Shown piece by piece: positions 1,511-12,043 of a DNA stretch of 24,000 nt. A program made the position numbers and the translations under genes. This stretch comes from Shimwellia blattae DSM 4481 = NBRC 105725 (GTDB taxonomy: Bacteria > Pseudomonadota > Gammaproteobacteria > Enterobacterales > Enterobacteriaceae): the NCBI RefSeq assembly GCF_000262305.1, contig NC_017910.1, forward strand, positions 1,481,422 to 1,505,421. Reading direction: 5' to 3'. How positions within the stretch are numbered: position 1 is the first letter of the stretch; each line of letters begins with the position of its first letter. The notes below the pieces were generated by a model. That model did not search any database, was not told the DNA's origin, and saw only the letters and a list, made by a program, of their open reading frames with translations.

Positions 1511-2635
1511 TCAGAAAGAGCGATGGAAGTTGGCGATGGGCAGTACCGGTACTGCGGCGTTGGTTGCCACGTTAATCAGACCAATTTGTAAACCTTCCAG
1601 GTTATTGGTGACGTTCACCAGACCAATCTGGAAGTTTGTCGCGCTGGCGCTGTTTAACAAGCCGAAGTCGAAGGTGCTGCTGCCGGTGGACATGTTTACC
1701 ACCCCGAGGTTCATGCCGGTCACGTTGTTGGCTACGTTAAATGCGCCCAGGTTCATACCGGTGACGTCATGTGACAAGTTAATCGCCCCCATGTTGAAAC
1801 CGGTGACATCGCCGGTCCAGTTCAGGGCGCTGATGTTGGCGCCGGTCATATTGCCGGATTTATTAAATCCCGCCACGTTCAGGCCGGTAACATCGCCGGA
1901 GACGTTAACAATCCCCGCATTCACCCCGGTAATTTTACCTTCGCTCCAGTTACCCAGTGCGCCAATATTGACCCCCTGAACATCGGCGGTGTGGTTAAGC
2001 AGCGAGACGTTCAGGCCCTGCGTGTTGCCCGCGGTCCAGTTAAGTGGCGCAACGTTCACCCCTTTGACTTCGCCTCCGGTATAGTTACCCACCCCGACGA
2101 TATTGGCACCATAAATGCTGCCTTCGGTATCATTCCCCAGGCCTACGGTGTTCAGGCCGGTAATATTGCCGGTTGAATAGTTCCCAAGGCCCGCCAGGTT
2201 CCAGCCGGTGGCATTGGCGGTGGTGTTGGCAAGGCCCAGGTTAAGGCCCGTCATGTTGGCGGTGCCGCTGTAAAGGCCAATGCTGGCACCGTTGAGGTTA
2301 CCAAGCTGGTTAGCCAGGCCAATATTCAGGCCGTTATCTTCGCCCCCGTGCCAGTTAAACAGGTTAAGCGCCATCCCGTTCATACCGTTACGGATATGGT
2401 CACCACCGACACCCAGCTCCAGCCCGTTCAGTTTGTCCATTTCCGTATAACCGAGGATCGGCATATCAACACCGTTAACGGTGCCGGTTTGCCCGTAGAG
2501 AAATGTACCGTGGAAACCGTTGACCTCGGTATCATCCGGAAGATTGCCGAAAGAGGAGAGCTGCACCGGGGCCGCATAACCCGCGCCGGATACCAGTGCG
2601 CATGACAGTAATAAACCTAGTGTTGAACGTTTCAT
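1511..2635 (-). CDS. Secreted Asn/Gly-rich repeat protein (about 16 tandem 14-16-residue repeats); family not recognised
   Basis: It has a Sec-type signal peptide (MKRSTLGLLLSCALVSGAGYAAP). The repeats follow N-x-[ST]-G-x-[VI]-[TQ]-G-[LVFM]-N-[VIML]-[GA]-x-[LIVF], for example NVSGDVTGLNVAGF / NKSGNMTGANISAL / NWTGDVTGFNMGAI / NLSHDVTGMNLGAF. The protein ends in ...ANFHRSF, an aromatic C-terminal residue as in outer-membrane proteins. GC is similar to the core. Confidence 0.75.
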   Translation of the reverse strand: MKRSTLGLLLSCALVSGAGYAAPVQLSSFGNLPDDTEVNGFHGTFLYGQTGTVNGVDMPILGYTEMDKLNGLELGVGGDHIRNGMNGMALNLFNWHGGEDNGLNIGLANQLGNLNGASIGLYSGTANMTGLNLGLANTTANATGWNLAGLGNYSTGNITGLNTVGLGNDTEGSIYGANIVGVGNYTGGEVKGVNVAPLNWTAGNTQGLNVSLLNHTADVQGVNIGALGNWSEGKITGVNAGIVNVSGDVTGLNVAGFNKSGNMTGANISALNWTGDVTGFNMGAINLSHDVTGMNLGAFNVANNVTGMNLGVVNMSTGSSTFDFGLLNSASATNFQIGLVNVTNNLEGLQIGLINVATNAAVPVLPIANFHRSF

Positions 2636-3059
2636 TTTTTTCCCTGTTTTTCTTATGCAGAAAATCCGCAGTTATGTTGGTGCACTGTTTTAATGGTTTT
2701 ATTATCCACAGCCATCATGGCAGGTGGGTAATAAATGTACTGGTCATGCATACTTATAAACAGCGACACCCATTGGATATAAAATACCGCGCTGTGTTAA
2801 TCAGGATTCGCTAAATGTGCCGCTAAGAAATATTAATATGAATGAATTGTGCTTATCGTCCATTGTCAAGTACCATATGGGCGGTGATTATTGCCCCCGG
2901 TGATTAATGTCTGACCGGGGCGATAGTTTATTATCCGGTGGAAACCTCTTTCTGCGATTTCCCCGCACAATGGCTCTTTTCCGCTAATCATATTGTCATC
3001 GCGGTATGTTATTGATATTTGTGGCAATTAAGGTAATTTTTAAATTTTTCTACCGGTAC

Positions 3060-3625
3060 GGTATTCCGTATTTGGATGATTACGAACAGCAGTGATCACC
3101 GCATTCTATCTGTCACTCGGTCTGTTCTGCCACAATGACTGGCTGGGTGAAAAAATTCTGTATCTGCAGCAAACCGTAGGGCACGAGAAAAGCGCAGGGA
3201 TCTCTAAGGCTGTTTGTATACGTTTCCCTTATCTTCAGTTTCTTATGTAATTGATGGTATTGATTGGGAGTAAATAAAATATCCAGTCGTAAAACCTGAC
3301 TATTTATTGTCGTTAAATAAATTCTGGCAAATAGAAAACTGATAACATCATAAATAGTAGAATAATACCAACAATGGAAAGTCGCACTTTTACACGTAAC
3401 CAATTGGTGTACTGATTAGGAAGCTCTTTAATGAAACGTATTTGTTCATTATTCATTCCCCGCGTATGAAATGAGTTTTCTTTAAAGTATAATGCTTTAA
3501 TAAAGAATGCATCACGCATAAATGAGAAAAATAACCCCCCATCCTGATAAATTAAAACTTCAACTGGTCTTGCTCCAAATTTTTCAACAAATAGCGAGCA
3601 AAGAGTAATGAATTTATTTTTCGAA
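3060..3625. repeat. Repeat D, copy A (3' two-thirds of immunity-like gene A plus about 250 bp downstream tail); pairs with 5626-6191
   Basis: Collinear with 5626-6191 at a constant offset of 2566 bp with no net indel. Identity is roughly 90-95% by eye. Confidence 0.85.
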
Positions 3626-3735
3626 GCACGATCGTAAATGATGGAAATAATAACCGTAAGTATTAGGCATAAACACAATGCTAATCCAATCGGGTTTCGA
3701 TACATAATTATAAAATTAATTACCGAAAATTTCAT
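3313..3735 (-). CDS. Two-TM membrane protein, candidate immunity protein for the upstream glycine-zipper ORF (paralogue A)
   Basis: 140 aa counted from ATG 3735 (MKFSVINF...). I prefer this to the track start at 3750 because GGAG lies 8 nt upstream, the ATG overlaps the upstream stop (GTATGAAA), and the paralogue starts at the equivalent MKLSAINF. It has hydrophobic N-terminal (IGLALCLCLILTVIISII) and C-terminal (LSIVGIILLFMMLSVFY) segments. Confidence 0.7.
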   Translation of the reverse strand: MKFSVINFIIMYRNPIGLALCLCLILTVIISIIYDRASKNKFITLCSLFVEKFGARPVEVLIYQDGGLFFSFMRDAFFIKALYFKENSFHTRGMNNEQIRFIKELPNQYTNWLRVKVRLSIVGIILLFMMLSVFYLPEFI

Positions 3736-4097
3736 ACAGCTGTTCTCCACCCTAATGTCCCAACAGCACTTCCCACTGTACTACCAGCGTACCCTAAACC
3801 AACACCAGCAACACCACCGCCCGTACATAAAAACCGGGATCGAAGGGATAATTTAATGTCTGGGGTGAGGTAGCCCGGCACCTTGGGAAAAACAATTACA
3901 GTGACACGGTGGCAACCCTCAGCACTAAATACAGTTTTAAATAACCCACTGTATTTTTTGTGCTGATTTATTTGATACCCGCCTACAACTTTCCTGGCGA
4001 GTATCGTGTTGCAAGTCCTGTAAGTCCATTGTACACAGCAGGCTAGTTTGTTATTGACTTCATTACCGCTCGTTAGGCGGTTGATCTTTCGTTCCAT
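3732..4097 (-). CDS. Small ORF with a C-terminal glycine-zipper segment; candidate Hcp-associated membrane-active effector (start uncertain, may be partly degenerate)
   Basis: This is a 121-codon ORF open in AT-rich DNA immediately 3' of hcp. The C-terminus CTGGGVAGVGLGYAGSTVGSAVGTLGW is a G-x3-G zipper. Its stop is coupled to the next gene by an ATGA overlap. Against it: ATG 4097 lies 25 nt inside hcp with no SD, and the first ~90 residues are Cys-rich with rare codons. Confidence 0.4.
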   Translation of the reverse strand: MERKINRLTSGNEVNNKLACCVQWTYRTCNTILARKVVGGYQINQHKKYSGLFKTVFSAEGCHRVTVIVFPKVPGYLTPDIKLSLRSRFLCTGGGVAGVGLGYAGSTVGSAVGTLGWRTAV

Positions 4098-4564
4098 GAG
4101 TCTGTGTACTGGATATTACCATCAAGAATTTTCCATGTTATTTTTTCATACTGCAGGCTGACGCTTTCAACGTGATTCATTTTGTCATTACCAGCCAGTT
4201 TAACGTTTGGTACGCCACAATTAACGCCTGTTATTTTCACATTTTCCATAAGGACCGAGTAATAACAAACCTCTTGTCCGGCATGGTTGATATGATAAAA
4301 ACGAATTTCAGCACTTTTCAGAGTTTGTCCTGTTGCTGCTGCTTTGTACAGGTAGGGCGTAGAGCTATCAACTTCTTTTTCAATCATCATTGATGAATGC
4401 TGGCGAGTACCGGTAATCTTACCATTGGCATTATCTACTGGAATATTAATCCCGTGGCTTAATCCAATGATCTCTATGCTTCCATCTCGATCCTGAACAT
4501 CTACAGAACCTTTAATATCTGCTCCACCATCGTCTTTAATCCACATATACGGAGGGATAGGCAT
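4073..4564 (-). CDS. hcp: Hcp (T6SS tube protein, TssD), orphan copy
   Basis: 163 aa. MPIPPYMWIKDDGGADIKGSVDVQDRDGSIEI..., SSTPYLYKAAATGQTLKSAEIRFY and ...YEKITWKILDGNIQYTDSWNERSTA closely resemble Salmonella and E. coli Hcp as I remember them. AGGAG lies 9 nt upstream of the ATG. Confidence 0.92.
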   Translation of the reverse strand: MPIPPYMWIKDDGGADIKGSVDVQDRDGSIEIIGLSHGINIPVDNANGKITGTRQHSSMMIEKEVDSSTPYLYKAAATGQTLKSAEIRFYHINHAGQEVCYYSVLMENVKITGVNCGVPNVKLAGNDKMNHVESVSLQYEKITWKILDGNIQYTDSWNERSTA

Positions 4565-4565
4565 T

Positions 4566-4838
4566 TTATTTTCTCCTGATTAATTTGAACGCTAGCATGG
4601 TTAAAATGTAAAGCACGGTTGTTATTGAAAAAATACTGATTACTGATATATAAACGTAGAGTTCATAAAAATTATCTGCTCCAGGCTCTTCTGAATCATA
4701 GATAAATCGCCCTAATTCGAGTGTTAAATTGTGATTCATCCATATTTCCGGGGGGCCAATTGCGCGTCCTACACATAAAGACAGAAGGATGTAATATAAT
4801 ATTTTTGAAGTTTTACGAACAAATATAGGTATAGTCAC
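4566..4838 (-). CDS. Small membrane protein, candidate immunity protein for the Tlde1-like effector (start uncertain)
   Basis: It sits in the classic immunity position between the effector and hcp. Its stop is 1 nt before the hcp ATG. I chose GTG 4838 (GAGG about 9 nt upstream) over the track start at 4862; ATG 4736 is an alternative. There are hydrophobic segments ILYYILLSLCVG and LYVYISVISIFSITTVLYILTMLAF, with a loop of about 35 aa between them. I recognise no similarity to Tldi1. Confidence 0.5.
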   Translation of the reverse strand: MTIPIFVRKTSKILYYILLSLCVGRAIGPPEIWMNHNLTLELGRFIYDSEEPGADNFYELYVYISVISIFSITTVLYILTMLAFKLIRRK

Positions 4839-5334
4839 TGGCAACCACCTCAATCCAGCCACGGGCCATAAGGGAACGCATACAGGGAACCTGAATCAGT
4901 GATGTGTTCATTAACGCATTACGGATTTGCGCATAATCAGAATTGTGGGCAATGGTGATGCAACCTTCTGAAATAGTTCCTGGGTGAAGTCTGAATAACC
5001 CCCTATAGACGCCGTCTATCCATGTTCCGTCATCAATGCCCCAGTCATCCCGATAGAGAGCAAACCATTCATTATGCCCAAATTGGGTGCCGTTATAAAT
5101 TTTATTAAATAAATCAAGAGATTTTTCTCTTATTTTTGATACCAGTCCACCAGAACCACGATCAACAATCCAGTATTTACCTGGCGGTATTGGCCCTTCT
5201 CCTTTAACAGCACCACATGCGCCTTTGTTTCTGTAAATACTATTACCGGAAAAGGCCATAAATACGCCCACACCATACAGATTGAAGGGGGCGTAATCTG
5301 CGCCGTTTAATATCATTTTCCCTTGCAGTGCCAC
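4813..5334 (-). CDS. tlde1: Tlde1-like (DUF2778) T6SS effector; predicted L,D-transpeptidase-fold peptidoglycan-targeting toxin
   Basis: FMAFSGNSIYRNKGACG..GPIPPGKYWIV, NEWFALYRDD and FRLHPGTISEGCITI (a His...Cys signature) match my recollection of DUF2778/Tlde1 proteins encoded beside hcp in Salmonella SPI-6. GTG 5334 has AGGA 5 nt upstream, and it is retained in the duplicated copy. ATG 5316 is an alternative start. Confidence 0.72.
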   Translation of the reverse strand: MALQGKMILNGADYAPFNLYGVGVFMAFSGNSIYRNKGACGAVKGEGPIPPGKYWIVDRGSGGLVSKIREKSLDLFNKIYNGTQFGHNEWFALYRDDWGIDDGTWIDGVYRGLFRLHPGTISEGCITIAHNSDYAQIRNALMNTSLIQVPCMRSLMARGWIEVVASDYTYICS

Positions 5335-5564
5335 AGGAATCCTGTTTCTTCTGACCGTTCAGAACATTAATTTTACAGTTCTCTCCTTCGGCATGCTGGA
5401 AATACTTTCTCGGAAAAGAACTTAAAATTAAACGTATTCAGGTTAAATTAAACCTATTTGCTATTCATTATTAAGCCGCTGATAGTTCATTTTATTAATT
5501 ATGATGAGAGTAATATATAACACGGATACCCAAAAGGGGCTCTGCATACCTGGTGCTGCGCCGT
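5330..5564. repeat. Repeat R, copy 1 (235-bp upstream/leader region of the tlde1-hcp operon); pairs with 6335-6569
   Basis: Aligns with 6335-6569 at a constant offset of 1005 bp. I counted 13 mismatches in 235 bp and no indels. Confidence 0.9.
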
Positions 5565-5625
5565 AGTGGCAGGTACGAACATGGCGAAGATCGGCAAAGT
5601 GTTTGCTGATGTTCGAGATCAGTTG

Positions 5626-6191
5626 GGTATTCCTTATCTGGATGATTATGGATAGCGGCGGTTACTGCATTCTATCTGTCATTCGGTCTGTTCTGCCACA
5701 ATGACTGGCTGGGTGAAAAAATTCTGTATCTGCAGAAAACCGTAGGGCACGAGAAAAGCGCAGGGATCTCTAAGGCTATTTGTATACGTTTCCCTTATCT
5801 TCAGTTTCTTATGTAATTGATGGTATTGATTGGGAGTAAATAAAATAGTCAGGCGTAAAACCTGACTATTTATTGTCGTTAAATAAATGCTGACAAATAG
5901 AAAACTGATAGCATCATAAATAGTAAAATAATACCGACGATGGAAAGTCGCACTTTTACACGTAACCAATTGGTGTACTGATTAGGAAGTTCTTTAATGA
6001 AGCGTATTTGTTCATTATTCATTCCCCGCGTATGAAATGAATTTTCTTTAAAATATAATGCTTTAATAAAGAATGCGTCACGCATAAATGAGAAAAAGAA
6101 TCCACCATCCTGATAAATTAAAACTTCAGCTGGTTTTGCTCCAAATTTTTCAACAAATAGAGAGCATAGAATCATGAATTTTCTCTTAGCT
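5626..6191. repeat. Repeat D, copy B (3' two-thirds of immunity-like gene B plus downstream tail)
   Basis: See copy A at 3060-3625. Confidence 0.85.
5846..5868 (-). terminator. Rho-independent terminator of immunity paralogue B
   Basis: tagtcagg/cctgacta forms a perfect 8-bp stem with a 7-nt loop, 10 nt after the stop at 5879. On the minus strand it is followed by TTTTATTTA. In copy A (about 3281-3302) the left arm is disrupted. Confidence 0.6.
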
Positions 6192-6301
6192 AACTTGTCA
6201 TAAATCACGTAAGAAACATAATTAATTATTCCAAGAATCAAAAAGATCCCAGCGATTTCAACTCGATATGTCGTTATAAAATTAATTGCCGAAAGTTTCA
6301 T
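5879..6301 (-). CDS. Two-TM membrane protein, orphan immunity-like paralogue B
   Basis: 140 aa (MKLSAINF...). Residues 45-140 differ from paralogue A at 5 positions, while residues 1-44 are only about 40% identical. GGAGGAG lies upstream, and the ATG overlaps the TGA of a 13-codon scar ORF. Confidence 0.7.
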   Translation of the reverse strand: MKLSAINFITTYRVEIAGIFLILGIINYVSYVIYDKLAKRKFMILCSLFVEKFGAKPAEVLIYQDGGFFFSFMRDAFFIKALYFKENSFHTRGMNNEQIRFIKELPNQYTNWLRVKVRLSIVGIILLFMMLSVFYLSAFI

Positions 6302-6339
6302 ACAACTGTTCTCCTCCTAATTCCCCGATGCGGAGCCAC
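6298..6339 (-). pseudogene. 13-codon fusion mini-ORF: the tlde1-type GTG start joined in frame to the last ~9 codons of a glycine-zipper toxin gene (deletion scar or coupling leader)
   Basis: The sequence reads GTG GCT CCG CAT CGG GGA ATT AGG AGG AGA ACA GTT GTA TGA. The first 5 nt and everything upstream match R1 and the tlde1 start. The last ~30 nt match the 3' end of ORF 3732-4097 (GGG ACA TTA GGG TGG AGA ACA GCT GTA TGA). The TGA overlaps the ATG of paralogue B. Confidence 0.55.
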
Positions 6340-6569
6340 AGGAATCCTGTTTCTTCTGATCGTTCAGGACATTAATTGTACAGTTCCCTCCCTCGGCATG
6401 CTGAAAATACTTTCTCGGAAAAGATCTTAAAATTAAACGTATTCAGGTTAAATTAAACCTGTTGGCTATTCATTATTAAGCCGCTGATAGTTCATTTTAT
6501 TAATTATGATGAGGGTAATATATAACGCGGATACCCAAAAGGGGCTCTGCATACCTGGCACTGCGCCGT
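6335..6569. repeat. Repeat R, copy 2
   Basis: See copy 1 at 5330-5564. Confidence 0.9.
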
Positions 6570-6737
6570 TGTTCGCCCACCCCGGTGCTGGCGGCTGTAA
6601 AGGTAGCGGGACATATTCACAGGCAGCCCTGATACAACGCCAGTGATTCAGGCTACACATTTACGCCGTTATATGATGTACTAATGGACTGTGTGAAAAT
6701 ACGTAATTTACTGTAAGACAAACAGAATCTACGTTTA

Positions 6738-6866
6738 AAGACTCGGGGTGCCCTTCCTGGTGAAGGCTGAGAAATACCCGTACCACCTGATCTGGATAAT
6801 GCCAGCGTAGGGAAGTCTGATATCTGACCGGTATCTCTTCCCGCGCCGGGCAGGAGCGTTAACCCT
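6738..6866 (+). ncRNA. TPP (THI-box) riboswitch in the thiMD leader
   Basis: gactcggggtgccc...ggctgagaaatacccgtaccacctgatctggataatgccagcgtagggaag is almost the E. coli thiM aptamer as I remember it. The downstream segment ctcttccc can mask the AGGAG SD at 6852-6856, just before ATG 6867. Confidence 0.9.
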
Positions 6867-8617: not shown

Positions 8618-9670
8618 ATGACGGATATTACACAGCTGCTGGGCAAAGATGCCGACAGCCTGTTGCAGCACCGCTGTACCACCATCGCCGCAGATCAGCT
8701 CTATTTACCGGGCAGTGATTATGTGGATCGGGTCATGACGGATAACAACCGCCCCCCGGCGGTGCTGCGCAATATGCAGACGCTGTACAACACCGGGCGC
8801 CTGGCCGGTACGGGGTATCTCTCTATTTTGCCGGTTGATCAGGGGGTAGAGCACTCCGCCGGGGCCTCTTTTGCCGCCAACCCGCTCTACTTTGATCCTA
8901 AAAATATTGTCGAGCTGGCGATTGAGGCGGGCTGTAACTGCGTGGCGTCTACCTACGGGGTGCTGGCTTCGGTTTCCCGGCGTTATGCCCACCGCATCCC
9001 GTTTCTGGTCAAGCTCAACCATAACGAGACCCTCAGCTATCCCACCACCTATGATCAGACCCTGTACGCCAGTGTAGAGCAGGCGTTTAATCTGGGGGCG
9101 GTGGCCGTCGGGGCGACCATCTATTTTGGCTCGCCGGAGTCGCGCCGCCAGATTGAAGAGATCTCCGCGGCGTTTGAACGGGCCCACGAGCTGGGGCTGG
9201 TCACGGTACTGTGGGCTTATCTGCGCAACCCGGCGTTTAAAAAAGACGGGGTGGACTACCACGTCAGCGCCGATCTCACCGGCCAGGCCAACCACCTTGC
9301 CGCCACCATTGGTGCCGATATTGTGAAGCAGAAAATGGCGGAAAATAACGGCGGCTACAGCGCCATCGGCTTTGGCTATACGGACGAGCGGGTATACACC
9401 CGGCTGACCACCGATAACCCTATCGACCTGGTGCGTTACCAGCTGGCGAACTGCTATATGGGGCGCGCGGGGCTGATTAACTCCGGCGGGGCCGCCGGTG
9501 GCGAGACCGATCTGGCAGACGCGGTACGCACTGCGGTTATCAATAAACGGGCCGGGGGCATGGGGCTGATTCTGGGGCGCAAGGCGTTCAAGAAATCTAT
9601 GGCCGAAGGGGTGAGACTGATTAACGCGGTTCAGGATGTGTATCTGGATACCCGGGTCACCATTGCGTAA
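8618..9670 (+). CDS. fbaB: Class I fructose-bisphosphate aldolase
   Basis: 350 aa from ATG 8618 ([20 protein letters not shown]...), near-identical to my recollection of E. coli FbaB along its whole length. GGGAG lies 8 nt upstream. I judge the 11-codon extension in the track (8585) to be spurious. Confidence 0.95.
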
Positions 9671-9681
9671 TGGTGGCGGAT

Positions 9682-9767
9682 AAAAAATCGGCCTGCCCGA
9701 GGGAGATCGGGCAGGCCAAGGAGGTGGTTCCTGGTATAGGTTGCTTTGTAGGATATGTAATTGCAGC
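9682..9767 (-). ncRNA. cyaR: CyaR (RyeE) Hfq-dependent sRNA
   Basis: The minus strand reads GCTGCAATTACATATCCTACAAAGCAACCTATACCAGGAACCACCTCCTTGGCCTGCCCGATCTCCCTCGGGCAGGCCGATTTTTT. It contains the conserved CyaR seed ACCAGGAACCACCUCCUU, then an 11-bp terminator stem (9690-9717) and a U6 tract. As in E. coli, it lies just downstream of yegQ. Confidence 0.85.
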
Positions 9768-9801
9768 ACGGCGAATCATACGGATATCCGACAAAACAGT
9801 G

Positions 9802-9817
9802 TGTGACCGGTTTCTAA
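9802..9817. promoter_or_regulatory. Candidate CRP site of the cyaR promoter (class II position)
   Basis: TGTGA-ccggtt-TCTAA compared with the consensus TGTGA-N6-TCACA. It is centred about 42 nt upstream of the inferred +1 (9767). A TATGAT -10 lies 7 nt upstream of +1 on the minus strand. CyaR is known to be CRP-activated. Confidence 0.55.
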
Positions 9818-9894
9818 GATCCTGAACAATTTGAAAAATAACGTAAGGTTACTTCTTTTTTTGTGAGGTCCGATCACATTACGTGCAAAATGGT

Positions 9895-11265
9895 CTACGC
9901 CTTGTTTTTGCCGTGGGGATCCCGGGTCGTGTGTCCCGCCAGGTTGCGCAACAGCAGCCCGTACTCCAGCGCCATATCGTCAGGCACCGGGATCCATACG
10001 GTGTGGCCATCCCCCGGAGCGACATCGACCGGCTGGCCTTTGGTGTTTTCCATCTGTTCGAGGGTAAAGACCACGTTGCCCTGCGGGGTCATCATCTCCA
10101 GGCTGTCACCTTTGGTGAATTTGTTCTTCACCGCCACTGCGGCCAGCTCACCGCGCCGCTCGCCGGTGAATTCGCCCACAAACTGCTGGCGGTCAGACAC
10201 CGAATAGCCGTACTCGTAATTCTGGTAATCGTCGTGGGTGTGGCGGCGCAGGAAACCTTCGGTGTAACCACGGTGCGCCAGCCCTTCAAGGGTGTCCAGC
10301 AGGGCTGCGTCAAAGGGTTTCCCGGCGGCGGCGTCATCAATCGCCCGGCGGTAAACCTGCGCGGTGCGGGCACAGTAGTAAAACGATTTGGTGCGCCCTT
10401 CAATTTTCAGTGAGTGGACCCCCATCCGGGTCAGTTTTTCAACGTGCTGAATCGCGCGCAGATCTTTGGAGTTCATAATATAGGTGCCGTGTTCATCTTC
10501 GAACGCGGTCATATATTCCCCGGGGCGCTGGGCCTCTTCGATCATAAAGACTTTATCGGTCGGGGCGCCGAGACCGAGGGTCGGCTCAATATTCTGCACC
10601 GGGATCGGCTCATGCTGATGGACGATATTCCCCACATCGTCCTGCTTACCTTCCTGAACCTTGTACTCCCAGCGGCAGGCGTTAGTGCAGGTTCCCTGGT
10701 TCGGATCGCGCTTGTTGATATAGCCGGAAAGCAGGCAGCGCCCGGAGTAGGCCATGCACAGGGCTCCGTGAACGAAAATCTCCAGCTCGATATCCGGCAC
10801 CTGCTGGCGGATTTCGGCAATCTCTTCCAGGGAAAGCTCCCGGGAGAGAATCACCCGGGTAAGCCCCATCTGTTTCCAGAATTTTACCGTCGCCCAGTTA
10901 ACCGCATTGGCCTGTACCGACAGGTGAATATCCATCGCCGGGAAGGCTTCGCGGACCATCATAATCAGCCCGGGATCAGACATGATTAACGCGTCCGGCC
11001 CCATATCCACCACCGGTTGCAGATCGCGGATAAAGGTCTTCAGCTTGGCGTTATGGGGGGCAATATTGACCACCACATAAAACTTTTTCCCCAGCTGGTG
11101 GGCTTCCCGGATGCCGAGCGCAAGATTCTCGTGGTTGAATTCGTTATTGCGCACCCGCAGGCTGTAGCGCGGCTGGCCGGCGTAAACCGCGTCGGCACCA
11201 TAAGCGAAAGCGTAACGCATATTCTTCAGCGTTCCCGCCGGGGAAAGGAGTTCTGGTGTAAACAT
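9895..11265 (-). CDS. yegQ: U32-family peptidase-like protein YegQ (TrhP, tRNA hydroxylation)
   Basis: 456 aa. MFTPELLSPAGTLKNMRYAFAYGADAVYAGQPRYSLRVRNNEFNHENL..., and it is collinear with E. coli YegQ as I remember it. Confidence 0.93.
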   Translation of the reverse strand: MFTPELLSPAGTLKNMRYAFAYGADAVYAGQPRYSLRVRNNEFNHENLALGIREAHQLGKKFYVVVNIAPHNAKLKTFIRDLQPVVDMGPDALIMSDPGLIMMVREAFPAMDIHLSVQANAVNWATVKFWKQMGLTRVILSRELSLEEIAEIRQQVPDIELEIFVHGALCMAYSGRCLLSGYINKRDPNQGTCTNACRWEYKVQEGKQDDVGNIVHQHEPIPVQNIEPTLGLGAPTDKVFMIEEAQRPGEYMTAFEDEHGTYIMNSKDLRAIQHVEKLTRMGVHSLKIEGRTKSFYYCARTAQVYRRAIDDAAAGKPFDAALLDTLEGLAHRGYTEGFLRRHTHDDYQNYEYGYSVSDRQQFVGEFTGERRGELAAVAVKNKFTKGDSLEMMTPQGNVVFTLEQMENTKGQPVDVAPGDGHTVWIPVPDDMALEYGLLLRNLAGHTTRDPHGKNKA

Positions 11266-11376
11266 AATGTTCTCGTTCTGATGTCAGGTCAGGGCCACAC
11301 GGGCGTGTGGCGGGTAACGGTGGGAGGCCCACAAATTAAGGGCGGGAATTGTAGCGCCCCGCAGGCAGAGAGTAAA

Positions 11377-11397
11377 CCTGCCGGGCGCGGGCTCAGA
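11377..11397. repeat. 21-bp direct repeat, left copy (cctgccgggcgcgggctcaga) flanking the relBE cassette
   Basis: Identical to 12104-12124. The match extends to taaNcctg... with one mismatch. Confidence 0.9.
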
Positions 11398-11479
11398 GAT
11401 GTTCCCACGCGATTTCTGGGGCAACAGGATCATAACGGTGATATCAGCACACTTGTCATACCCATTTTGTAGTGCGACA

Positions 11480-11505
11480 CTTGTAATGACGTTTGTAATT
11501 ACAAG
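11480..11505 (+). promoter_or_regulatory. relBE operator (relO) and promoter-proximal region
   Basis: cTTGTAATgacgtTTGTAATTACAAg contains two TTGTAAT repeats and the perfect palindrome TTGTAATTACAA (11493-11504). It lies directly upstream of the SD AAGAGG and ATG 11517, essentially the K-12 relO layout as I recall it. Confidence 0.75.
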
Positions 11506-11516
11506 AGGTATAAGAC

Positions 11517-11756
11517 ATGGGTAGCATTAACCTGCGTATTGATGATGAACTTAAAGCTCGCTCTTACGCTGCGCTTGAAAAAATGGGTATAACGCCCTCT
11601 GAAGCGCTTCGTCTCATGCTTGAATATATCGCTGATAATGAACGTCTGCCGTTCAGACAGACACTCCTGAGTGATGAAGATGCTGAGCTCGTGGAGATAA
11701 TAAAAGAGCGTCTTCGCAATCCGAAGCCGGTCCGTGTGACGCTGGATGAGCTCTGA
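11517..11756 (+). CDS. relB: RelB antitoxin
   Basis: 79 aa, MGSINLRIDDELKARSYAALEKMGITPSEALRLMLEYIADNERLPF...NPKPVRVTLDEL, near-identical to E. coli K-12 RelB. Confidence 0.95.
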   Translation: MGSINLRIDDELKARSYAALEKMGITPSEALRLMLEYIADNERLPFRQTLLSDEDAELVEIIKERLRNPKPVRVTLDEL

Positions 11757-12043
11757 TGGCGTATTTTCTGGATTTTGACGAGCGGGCACTAAAGGAGTGG
11801 CGAAAGCTGGGCTCGACAGTACGTGAACAGTTTAAAAAGAAGCTGGCTGAAGTGCTTGAGTCACCCCGAATTGAAGCGAACAAACTTCGCGGTATGCCTG
11901 ATTGTTACAAGATAAAGCTCAGGTCTTCAGGTTATCGTCTTGTCTATCAGGTCATTGACGCGCAGGTTGTCGTCTTTGTGATTTCTGTCGGGAAAAGAGA
12001 ACGCCCGGAAGTTTATAGCGAGGCGGTCAAACGCATTCTCTGA
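11756..12043 (+). CDS. relE: RelE mRNA interferase toxin
   Basis: 95 aa, MAYFLDFDERALKEWRKLGSTVREQ...GYRLVYQVID..VVVFVISVGKRER.EVYSEAVKRIL, near-identical to K-12 RelE. The start overlaps the relB stop (TGATG). Confidence 0.95.
   Translation: MAYFLDFDERALKEWRKLGSTVREQFKKKLAEVLESPRIEANKLRGMPDCYKIKLRSSGYRLVYQVIDAQVVVFVISVGKRERPEVYSEAVKRIL

Follow-up and report, generated by a model that had tools for sequence, protein, structure and literature searches.

Orphan immunity genes that are left with 3' fragments of effector genes after recombination are already known, and no new mechanism is involved in the case described here, which concerns immB, an intact immunity-type gene without its toxin gene, in a stretch of 24,000 nucleotides (nt) of Shimwellia blattae DSM 4481 = NBRC 105725 (contig NC_017910.1, positions 1,481,422 to 1,505,421; hereafter the window). 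In Vibrio cholerae type VI secretion system (T6SS) clusters, arrays of orphan immunity genes arise by effector displacement (Kirchberger et al. 2017, PMC5361080); there, as in S. blattae, the immunity genes outlive the effector and 3' fragments of the effector gene remain, and illegitimate or homology-facilitated recombination has been proposed (PMC5361080). The orphan modules of Rhs and contact-dependent inhibition (CDI) systems, cited in the same source (its references 43-46), likewise combine strings of 3' toxin remnants with intact immunity genes through recombination at conserved sequence; in those remnants the toxic C-terminal domain is usually still complete, so that re-activation is possible (PMC5361080). 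The acquired interbacterial defence and orphan immunity clusters of the Bacteroidales and of Serratia also hold effector-less immunity genes, thought to be protective against non-self T6SS; these are dedicated, often mobile multi-gene arrays for which protection has been demonstrated (PMC10470768, PMC12247911, PMC10539506). Finally, the L,D-transpeptidase-like pair Tlde1/Tldi1 of Salmonella pathogenicity island 6 (SPI-6; PMC9638812) has a counterpart in the window, where tlde1 encodes a Tlde1 domain and is followed by a small gene, with hcp linked.

The S. blattae locus is a decayed mosaic (window 2640-6733) with two modules, the genes of which all lie on the minus strand (Table 1). Read 5' to 3' on that strand, module B follows the thiM thiamine pyrophosphate (TPP) riboswitch and a spacer (X), and consists of a leader (R2), a 13-codon open reading frame (ORF; here the mini-ORF), immB, a terminator hairpin and an integrase stump; module A then begins with the other copy of the leader (R1), followed by tlde1, tldi1, hcp, an autotransporter stump with terminator, a toxin tail, immA and a shorter integrase stump. 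Compared with the arrays of V. cholerae, the setting is a decayed integrase island at the thiM riboswitch instead of a main or auxiliary T6SS cluster, immB stands 5' of the tlde1 operon, upstream of the active module and not 3' of it, the active pair next to it belongs to an unrelated class of effectors, and immB has gained the duplicated leader of another effector operon, with no intact cognate effector for immA or immB. The layout of a sequential-displacement array, with orphans 3' of an active pair and behind T6SS structural genes, was therefore not found here. Unlike the Rhs/CDI modules, S. blattae keeps only 29-95 nt of toxin gene, so that re-activation is impossible, and in contrast to the Bacteroidales and Serratia clusters there are but two genes of putative function. 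With regard to the Salmonella pair, tlde1 of S. blattae is paired with neither immA nor immB and figures only as the neighbouring donor of the leader R. The local peculiarities are thus the thiM riboswitch island context, the coexistence of two alleles and the reuse of the leader of a neighbouring effector operon. We consider it probable that the orphan immB behind a duplicated leader is an unremarkable by-product of recombination in a toxin island undergoing decay.

Immunity-type genes and the island of related genomes

Relatives of the imm genes were collected from a scan of one genome per species, which gave ten full loci in Silvania, Enterobacter (two species), Erwinia typographi, Pantoea (two), Mangrovibacter, Kluyvera, Leclercia and Siccibacter. 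In every one of them the ATG of imm lies 20 nt before the TAA of an upstream toxin ORF, which is approximately 450-470 amino acids (aa) long in eight of the ten; the Pfam PAAR_motif scored above cut-off in all three toxins submitted to the scan (those of L010 and L006 and the second one of L002), and the toxin C-termini are glycine-rich in all ten. Homologues of immB, of 140 aa and 86-90% identical, stand 3' of PAAR toxins in Klebsiella, Enterobacter, Erwinia, Pantoea and Mangrovibacter. Downstream of imm the relatives possess a convergent tyrosine integrase (Pfam Phage_integrase on the Escherichia coli homologue). Most of the related loci place this unit at the thiM TPP riboswitch, several with a second partial copy of it, and riboswitch copies flank the island in L001-L008; E. 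coli strains hold a homologous integrase at the same riboswitch with other cargo (intact homologue at L001 6162-7463). These observations define a PAAR-toxin island that targets the thiM riboswitch and is common to many Enterobacterales.

In Silvania hatchlandensis (L002 8857-11553), beyond the integrase and riboswitch copy of the first island, there is a second PAAR toxin gene (9200-10612), followed by a pair of diverged imm paralogues at 10614-11006 and 11122-11403, of which the second is truncated, and by an integrase stump (11459-11553), an arrangement that looks like tandem accretion of islands at the thiM riboswitch.

Both S. blattae genes are intact, full-length at 140 aa when compared with the 140-aa homologues, and devoid of an intact cognate effector nearby, as module B retains 29 nt of toxin gene and module A about 85 nt, frameshifted. 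Since the toxin ORF directly adjoins and overlaps the imm homologue in all ten related loci, the initial annotation of this DNA, made from the sequence alone, was right to describe immB as an orphan immunity gene. The two paralogues are not simple copies of each other: over the first ~120 nt (~45 codons) immA and immB share 42-62% nucleotide identity, and the remainder of the modules 92-100%. The N-terminal allele of immA (type 2) is common to Leclercia, Siccibacter and E. nematophilus, and that of immB (type 1) to Silvania, Enterobacter, Erwinia, Pantoea and Mangrovibacter, whereas outside this variable part A and B are ~95% identical to each other and either is ~86-91% identical to any relative. 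The integrase stumps are likewise unequal, B keeping codons 343-433 and A showing solid homology from position 3060, at about codon 363, so that B has 61 nt more. Such a locus exemplifies the persistence of effector-less immunity genes, two alleles having survived while toxin, integrase and attachment (att) site eroded, and the orphan genes may have a protective role.

According to the initial annotation, module A still held a full-length glycine-zipper toxin, encoded by a 121-aa ORF upstream of immA, and effector, immunity, hcp and toxin were thought to have been removed cleanly in module B. The ORF proved to be a composite of the 3' overlap with hcp, the antisense of the autotransporter stump, which makes up two thirds of it, and the frameshifted toxin tail; it reaches the TGA over the immA ATG only through an extra G in module A (GGG for GG). 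The origin of the stump is apparent from a related strain (L030), in which a terminator and a convergently oriented autotransporter gene (Pfam Autotransporter beta-domain, 1.5e-13) come after immA; in the window the 3' end of that gene and its terminator have hcp on one side and the toxin tail on the other. A search of 1.84 billion representative proteins gave no relative of the 121-aa ORF except its own 97% copy, which derives from a related strain with a contig that matches window 5473-3709 at 98.75% identity. Between these two strains it differs by four nonsynonymous changes and one synonymous change, whereas hcp and tldi1 each differ by one nonsynonymous and two synonymous changes, and the gene calls on record for the source assembly (contig BAHA01000004.1) include none at this ORF. 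The candidate that it is a real small glycine-zipper toxin was ruled out by the representative search, the 4:1 ratio of nonsynonymous to synonymous changes and its composite makeup. With no toxin gene in the 121-aa ORF, immA is likewise an orphan, and a clean removal of the four genes misdescribes the loss.

The sequence that follows immA also differs between strains, with the autotransporter gene in L030 and the integrase stump in the window.

The duplicated leader, the junction and the mini-ORF

The two leaders form an ungapped repeat (5335-5567 versus 6340-6572) with 14 mismatches in 233 nt, equivalent to 94% identity (blastn E 6e-83), the outer edge of which is abrupt at 5567/6572, where 28 of the next 33 positions differ. 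A perfect block of 25 nt, TCAGAAGAAACAGGATTCCTGTGGC, spans the Shine-Dalgarno (SD)-like AGGA and the GTGGC in both copies, confirming that homology runs through the SD and GTGGC. The recurrence of 235 nt reported earlier (5330-5564 versus 6335-6569) was reproduced with exactly 13 mismatches and no indels; its boundaries, in turn, require adjustment because they place R 5 nt into tlde1, the full repeat being the 233 nt upstream of the GTG. Clean homology between R2 and the R/tlde1 boundary stops at GTGGC (6335), beyond which 5315-5329 and 6320-6334 are weakly similar, with six mismatches in 5315-5334 that all fall within those 15 nt.

The junction of X and R2 was seen again, at 99.6% identity, in an independent sample (L026). 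In the 98.75%-identical strain, the R before tlde1 is a mosaic of R1 and R2, with the R2 state at six of nine diagnostic sites (L022 1-139 versus 5335-5473 and 6340-6478), and the remainder of the module differs from the window by 0.9%, which suggests gene conversion between the two leaders in that strain. As contigs of related strains also end inside blocks common to R1 and R2, the two copies would be older than the divergence of the strains and would have exchanged sequence.

Two palindromes occur in both copies of R. An imperfect one of 16 nt, AGGTTAAATTAAACCT (5440-5455 and 6445-6460), is a candidate operator; a smaller one, ACAGGAATCCTGT (5333-5345 and 6338-6350), overlaps the SD-like AGGA and the GTG of tlde1 and of the mini-ORF and could occlude their weak ribosome-binding sites (RBS).

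On the far side of the junction, module B aligns gap-free with the toxin-gene tails of type-1 relatives (L002-L006) over 29 nt (6326-6298), from GGGGAATTAGG to the stop region. Between this stretch and GTGGC lie 8 nt (6334-6327, TCCGCATC) that are similar both to tlde1 codons 2-4 (GCA CTG CAA; some homologues begin MALH) and to toxin tails. Set beside its parents, the junction stretch compares with GCA CTG CAA GGG AAA at the 5' end of tlde1 and with toxin tails that contain GCATTCGG (type 2) or GTTGGGGAA. Because the 8-nt patch resembles both parents, the breakpoint lies in microhomology and has no single-base placement; the toxin-gene end that the initial annotation saw beyond the junction is confirmed by its match in toxin genes of relatives.

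The N-terminus MALQGK is kept in Tlde1 proteins of other genera, for which reason the GTGGC of R2 is native tlde1 coding sequence, R2 came from a tlde1-bearing module, and module B is derivative. The converse order, in which R directly before imm would be the ancestral state and tlde1-tldi1-hcp would have been inserted to give module A, is a formal possibility given that this module is mobile and occurs in varied contexts, but we regard it as very improbable: GTG GCx in R2 is Tlde1 coding sequence conserved across genera, the toxin tail of B is a fragment of a long PAAR toxin gene that relatives carry before imm, and the insertion would have had to hit exactly the position after GTGGC and restore a complete tlde1 ORF there. 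In this respect the initial annotation, which treated module B as derived, is upheld. It had also placed the tlde1 start at 5334, and this is correct; the support comes from the homologues, at least many of which, among the matches listed, are 173 aa long at 99-100% coverage, from the conserved N-terminus and from the ATG that replaces the GTG in the 98.75%-identical strain, rather than from retention of the GTG in R2. The Tlde1 domain itself (Pfam PF10908) scored 123 bits against a cut-off of 30.

The 13-codon ORF reads as had been described, and its TGA does overlap the immB ATG (GTATGA at 6303-6298). An ATGA stop/start overlap is an arrangement of translational coupling, and genes that depend on coupling typically lack an accessible SD of their own. 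While the mini-ORF shares the overlap, immB differs in having a strong SD. Three defining features of coupling were considered and the hypothesis fails two of them, as immB has an independent RBS and the frame of the upstream ORF is not conserved in the relatives, which use another.

The native toxin frame of the relatives is GGG GAA TTA GGx GGA GAA CAG xTG TAT GAx ... TAA, with the stop 20 nt inside imm in all ten, whereas the mini-ORF is read as CGG GGA ATT AGG AGG AGA ACA GTT GTA TGA, one base off. The junction is consequently in frame only if the frameshifted end of the 121-aa ORF is taken as the reference, and the ATGA overlap that had been put forward as the native toxin/imm arrangement corresponds in relatives to a 20-nt overlap ending in TAA. 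In addition, the three frames of the module B tail stop at a TAG 15 nt before the imm ATG, at the TGA overlapping it and at the TAA 20 nt inside imm (stops spanning -18 to +20). With every frame ending within this interval, a coupling-like geometry is automatic at any junction phase and is no evidence of selection; the overlap of the mini-ORF with immB is itself automatic because imm begins ATGA. The 13-codon ORF is a by-product of the junction, and it serves as a caution that chance can produce small ORFs, and "toxin" ORFs, at junctions of this kind.

The SD of immB (AGGAGGAG, AGGAGG) pairs with the anti-SD at -10.2 kcal/mol, the strongest of six start sites scored in the locus, compared with -7.4 for immA and -4.1 for both tlde1 and the mini-ORF; five relatives scored gave -6.4 to -7.1 kcal/mol. 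The SD region has a mean unpaired probability of 0.50-0.63 and a spacing, as reported by the tool, of 10 nt from the 3' end of the pairing. Since this SD is strong and mostly unpaired, independent initiation is expected and dependence of immB on upstream coupling is unlikely. A GGAG core is present in the imm SD of every relative, and in S. blattae the SD sits within the retained 29-nt toxin tail, which offers a simpler reason for the keeping of ~29 nt: the minimal upstream piece that was kept is the piece carrying the RBS of the immunity gene.

The initial annotation had interpreted the junction as a clean in-frame deletion, favoured by selection because it preserves promoter, start codon and a coupling mini-ORF that immB would need for its translation. 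In its favour, module B has retained R2 with the SD and the GTG, the stop of the mini-ORF falls on the immB ATG, and immB, itself intact, has no upstream gene in the same orientation that could supply its transcript. We nevertheless hold such a selected deletion to be unlikely, given the departure of the mini-ORF from the native frame and overlap, the stops of all three frames within ~20 nt of the ATG, the contrast between the accessible immB SD and the weak one of the mini-ORF, the non-genic nature of the module A "toxin" and the failure to detect a promoter. Equally doubtful is that capture of the leader was adaptive, with R as a regulated T6SS-responsive promoter and 5' untranslated region that would place immB under tlde1-hcp control, and with the retained start and 13-codon ORF as a leader peptide that would tune immB translation.

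Sources of the mosaic and order of events

The order of events may be reconstructed from the anatomy, homologies, reading frames, RBS strengths and non-genic "toxin" ORF observed in the window. Three sources would have contributed to the mosaic, namely an island integrating at the thiM TPP riboswitch (resolvase, PAAR-motif toxin with glycine-rich C-terminus, overlapping imm and convergent tyrosine integrase), an R-tlde1-tldi1-hcp islet and the 3' end of an autotransporter gene. Both immA and immB would have lost their toxin, each being left with only the end of the toxin gene (~85 nt in A and ~29 nt in B), the terminator region and an integrase stump. In module B the leader R and the first 5-12 nt of tlde1 appear to have been fused to the toxin tail in a short segment where the two parents resemble each other (GTGGC...GCA...GGG(G)AA), presumably by a microhomology-mediated event, most likely a deletion inside a duplicated R-tlde1...tox'-imm unit, or else an illegitimate or Campbell-type recombination to the same effect; immB would since have been translated independently from its own SD in the surviving 29 nt.

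A simple recent tandem duplication was rejected as a sufficient explanation in view of the imm allele mosaic, the unequal integrase stumps and the 6% difference between R1 and R2. The mosaic of alleles and the unequal stumps imply that one duplication and one deletion are not enough, and that at least one allele replacement and one further truncation, or else two acquisitions, are required. Modules A and B could, in the latter case, be the remains of two separate island acquisitions with different toxin/imm alleles, R2 having been put before immB by homologous or Campbell-type recombination through R, for instance via a circular R-tox'-imm-int' intermediate. This has some appeal, in that the two N-terminal alleles are found in different genera, the stumps are unequal, the R-[772 nt]-R structure is that of a single crossover product, the Silvania islands appear to have accreted at the same site and the mosaic R of the related strain points to exchange between copies. 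It is, however, the less likely account, though better placed than the other alternatives, as outside the variable part A and B are closest to each other, no riboswitch att copy lies between or beyond the modules and R is not known outside Shimwellia.

Several points weigh against our preferred interpretation of the orphan immB as a recombination by-product. The 61 nt of additional integrase in B and the different imm alleles mean that plain duplication followed by deletion needs extra events, and no undeleted ancestor of module B (R-tlde1...type-1 imm) was found. R had no blastn match outside Shimwellia in the ten related imm loci, eight tlde1 loci, plasmids and E. coli genomes, and none in a 25-mer scan of Joint Genome Institute (JGI) metagenomes. 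No second genome with the mini-ORF was found in a sample that is effectively one strain plus fragmentary contigs. The immunity role of the imm family is putative, being read from gene position only. Consensus and relaxed scans of R for a sigma-70 promoter gave only weak 8/12 candidates, and the earlier statement that the promoter was kept is thereby reduced to an inference from gene orientation: because thiM is divergent the immB transcript must presumably start in X or R2, and given the strong hairpin behind immB, tlde1 is likely to require a transcript start of its own in R1, so that R would possess promoter activity.

Further searches bear on the distribution of the parts. At the nucleotide level R, tlde1 and tldi1 are absent from the ten related imm loci, and the only hcp match there is a weak one in Siccibacter (L010). 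Neither the imm proteins (Pfam, NCBIfam) nor tldi1, the position of which after tlde1 is kept in relatives, matched a family. A cluster look-up and a search with the N-terminal 65 aa of immB returned no near-identical copy of the module B junction in a related strain, Logan contigs breaking at the repeats, and the window contains no second riboswitch or att copy that would mark the end of the island.

Features of the locus and its surroundings

The features of the locus are collected in Table 1, which corrects the annotation: no toxin is ascribed to the 121-aa ORF, tlde1 has its start confirmed, and the pseudogene fragments of integrase and autotransporter are identified.

Table 1. Features of the mosaic in minus-strand 5' to 3' order (window positions)
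Feature	Position	Strand	Basis or remark
thiM TPP riboswitch	6734..6830	+	Rfam RF00059, 75.9 bits; attachment region of island in relatives
R2, second copy of 233-nt leader	6340..6572	-	94% identity to R1, no indels; outer end adjoins X (6573-6733), then thiM riboswitch
Mini-ORF, 13 codons GTG..TGA, VAPHRGIRRRTVV and stop	6298..6339	-	Chimera of tlde1 start, junction and out-of-frame toxin tail
Recombination junction	6326..6335	-	Ambiguous stretch resembling both parents; alignments
PAAR-toxin gene remnant, last 29 nt, type-1 allele, holds immB RBS AGGAGGAG	6298..6326	-	Gap-free versus L002-L006
immB, intact 140-aa orphan immunity-type gene, predicted membrane protein, type-1 allele	5879..6301	-	Homologues 3' of PAAR toxins
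Terminator-like hairpin, bidirectional, 12 bp, just after immB stop	5843..5871	.	Computed
Tyrosine integrase gene 3' remnant	5566..5839	+	aa 343-433 of E. coli homologue; stop and frameshifts; convergent with immB; adjoins R1 directly
R1, leader upstream of tlde1	5335..5567	-	Repeat alignment
tlde1, 173 aa, GTG start	4813..5334	-	Pfam Tlde1_dom 9e-36
Putative tldi1 immunity gene, 90-98 aa depending on start	4566..4862	-	Position after tlde1 kept in relatives
hcp	4073..4564	-	Pfam T6SS_HCP 1e-33
Autotransporter gene 3'-end remnant (last ~38 codons, ending NVWGEVARHLGKNNYSDTVATLSTKYSFK and stop) and terminator	3827..4043	+	88.5% identity to L030
121-aa ORF, fortuitous chimera	3732..4097	-	Composite, no family
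PAAR-toxin 3' remnant of module A (~80-95 nt)	3732..3826	-	Extra G shifts frame; stop TGA overlaps immA ATG
immA, second intact 140-aa orphan immunity-type gene, N-terminal ~45 codons of type-2 allele	3313..3735	-	Allele comparison
Shorter integrase 3' remnant, module A	3060..3273	+	Alignment

The hairpin after immB has a clean 12-bp stem, and its counterpart after immA (3277-3305) has one arm scrambled. The mosaic is flanked by window 2636-3059 and 6573-6733, which have no match in any related locus, the former standing where the distal riboswitch or att copy would be expected. The left border of the island is marked by a gene for a 374-aa secreted-looking protein (window 1511-2635, minus strand) with GxN-rich repeats (..GLNxG..NxTG..) and without a Pfam match.

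The closest tlde1 modules (L014-L019, from Raoultella terrigena and metagenomes; for example L018 5001-6980) contain internal remnants of their own, in that a 41-aa ORF corresponds to the first 47 nt of hcp and the next 173-aa ORF starts inside ~150 nt similar to the tlde1 3' end, which suggests that modules may have been shuffled there too. Elsewhere in the window, a CyaR/RyeE small RNA gene (9685-9769, minus strand; Rfam, 73 bits) lies between genes for a class I aldolase-like protein and a U32 peptidase, and a RelB/ParE-type toxin-antitoxin pair is found at 11517-12043 on the plus strand (Pfam labels, gene table of L013).

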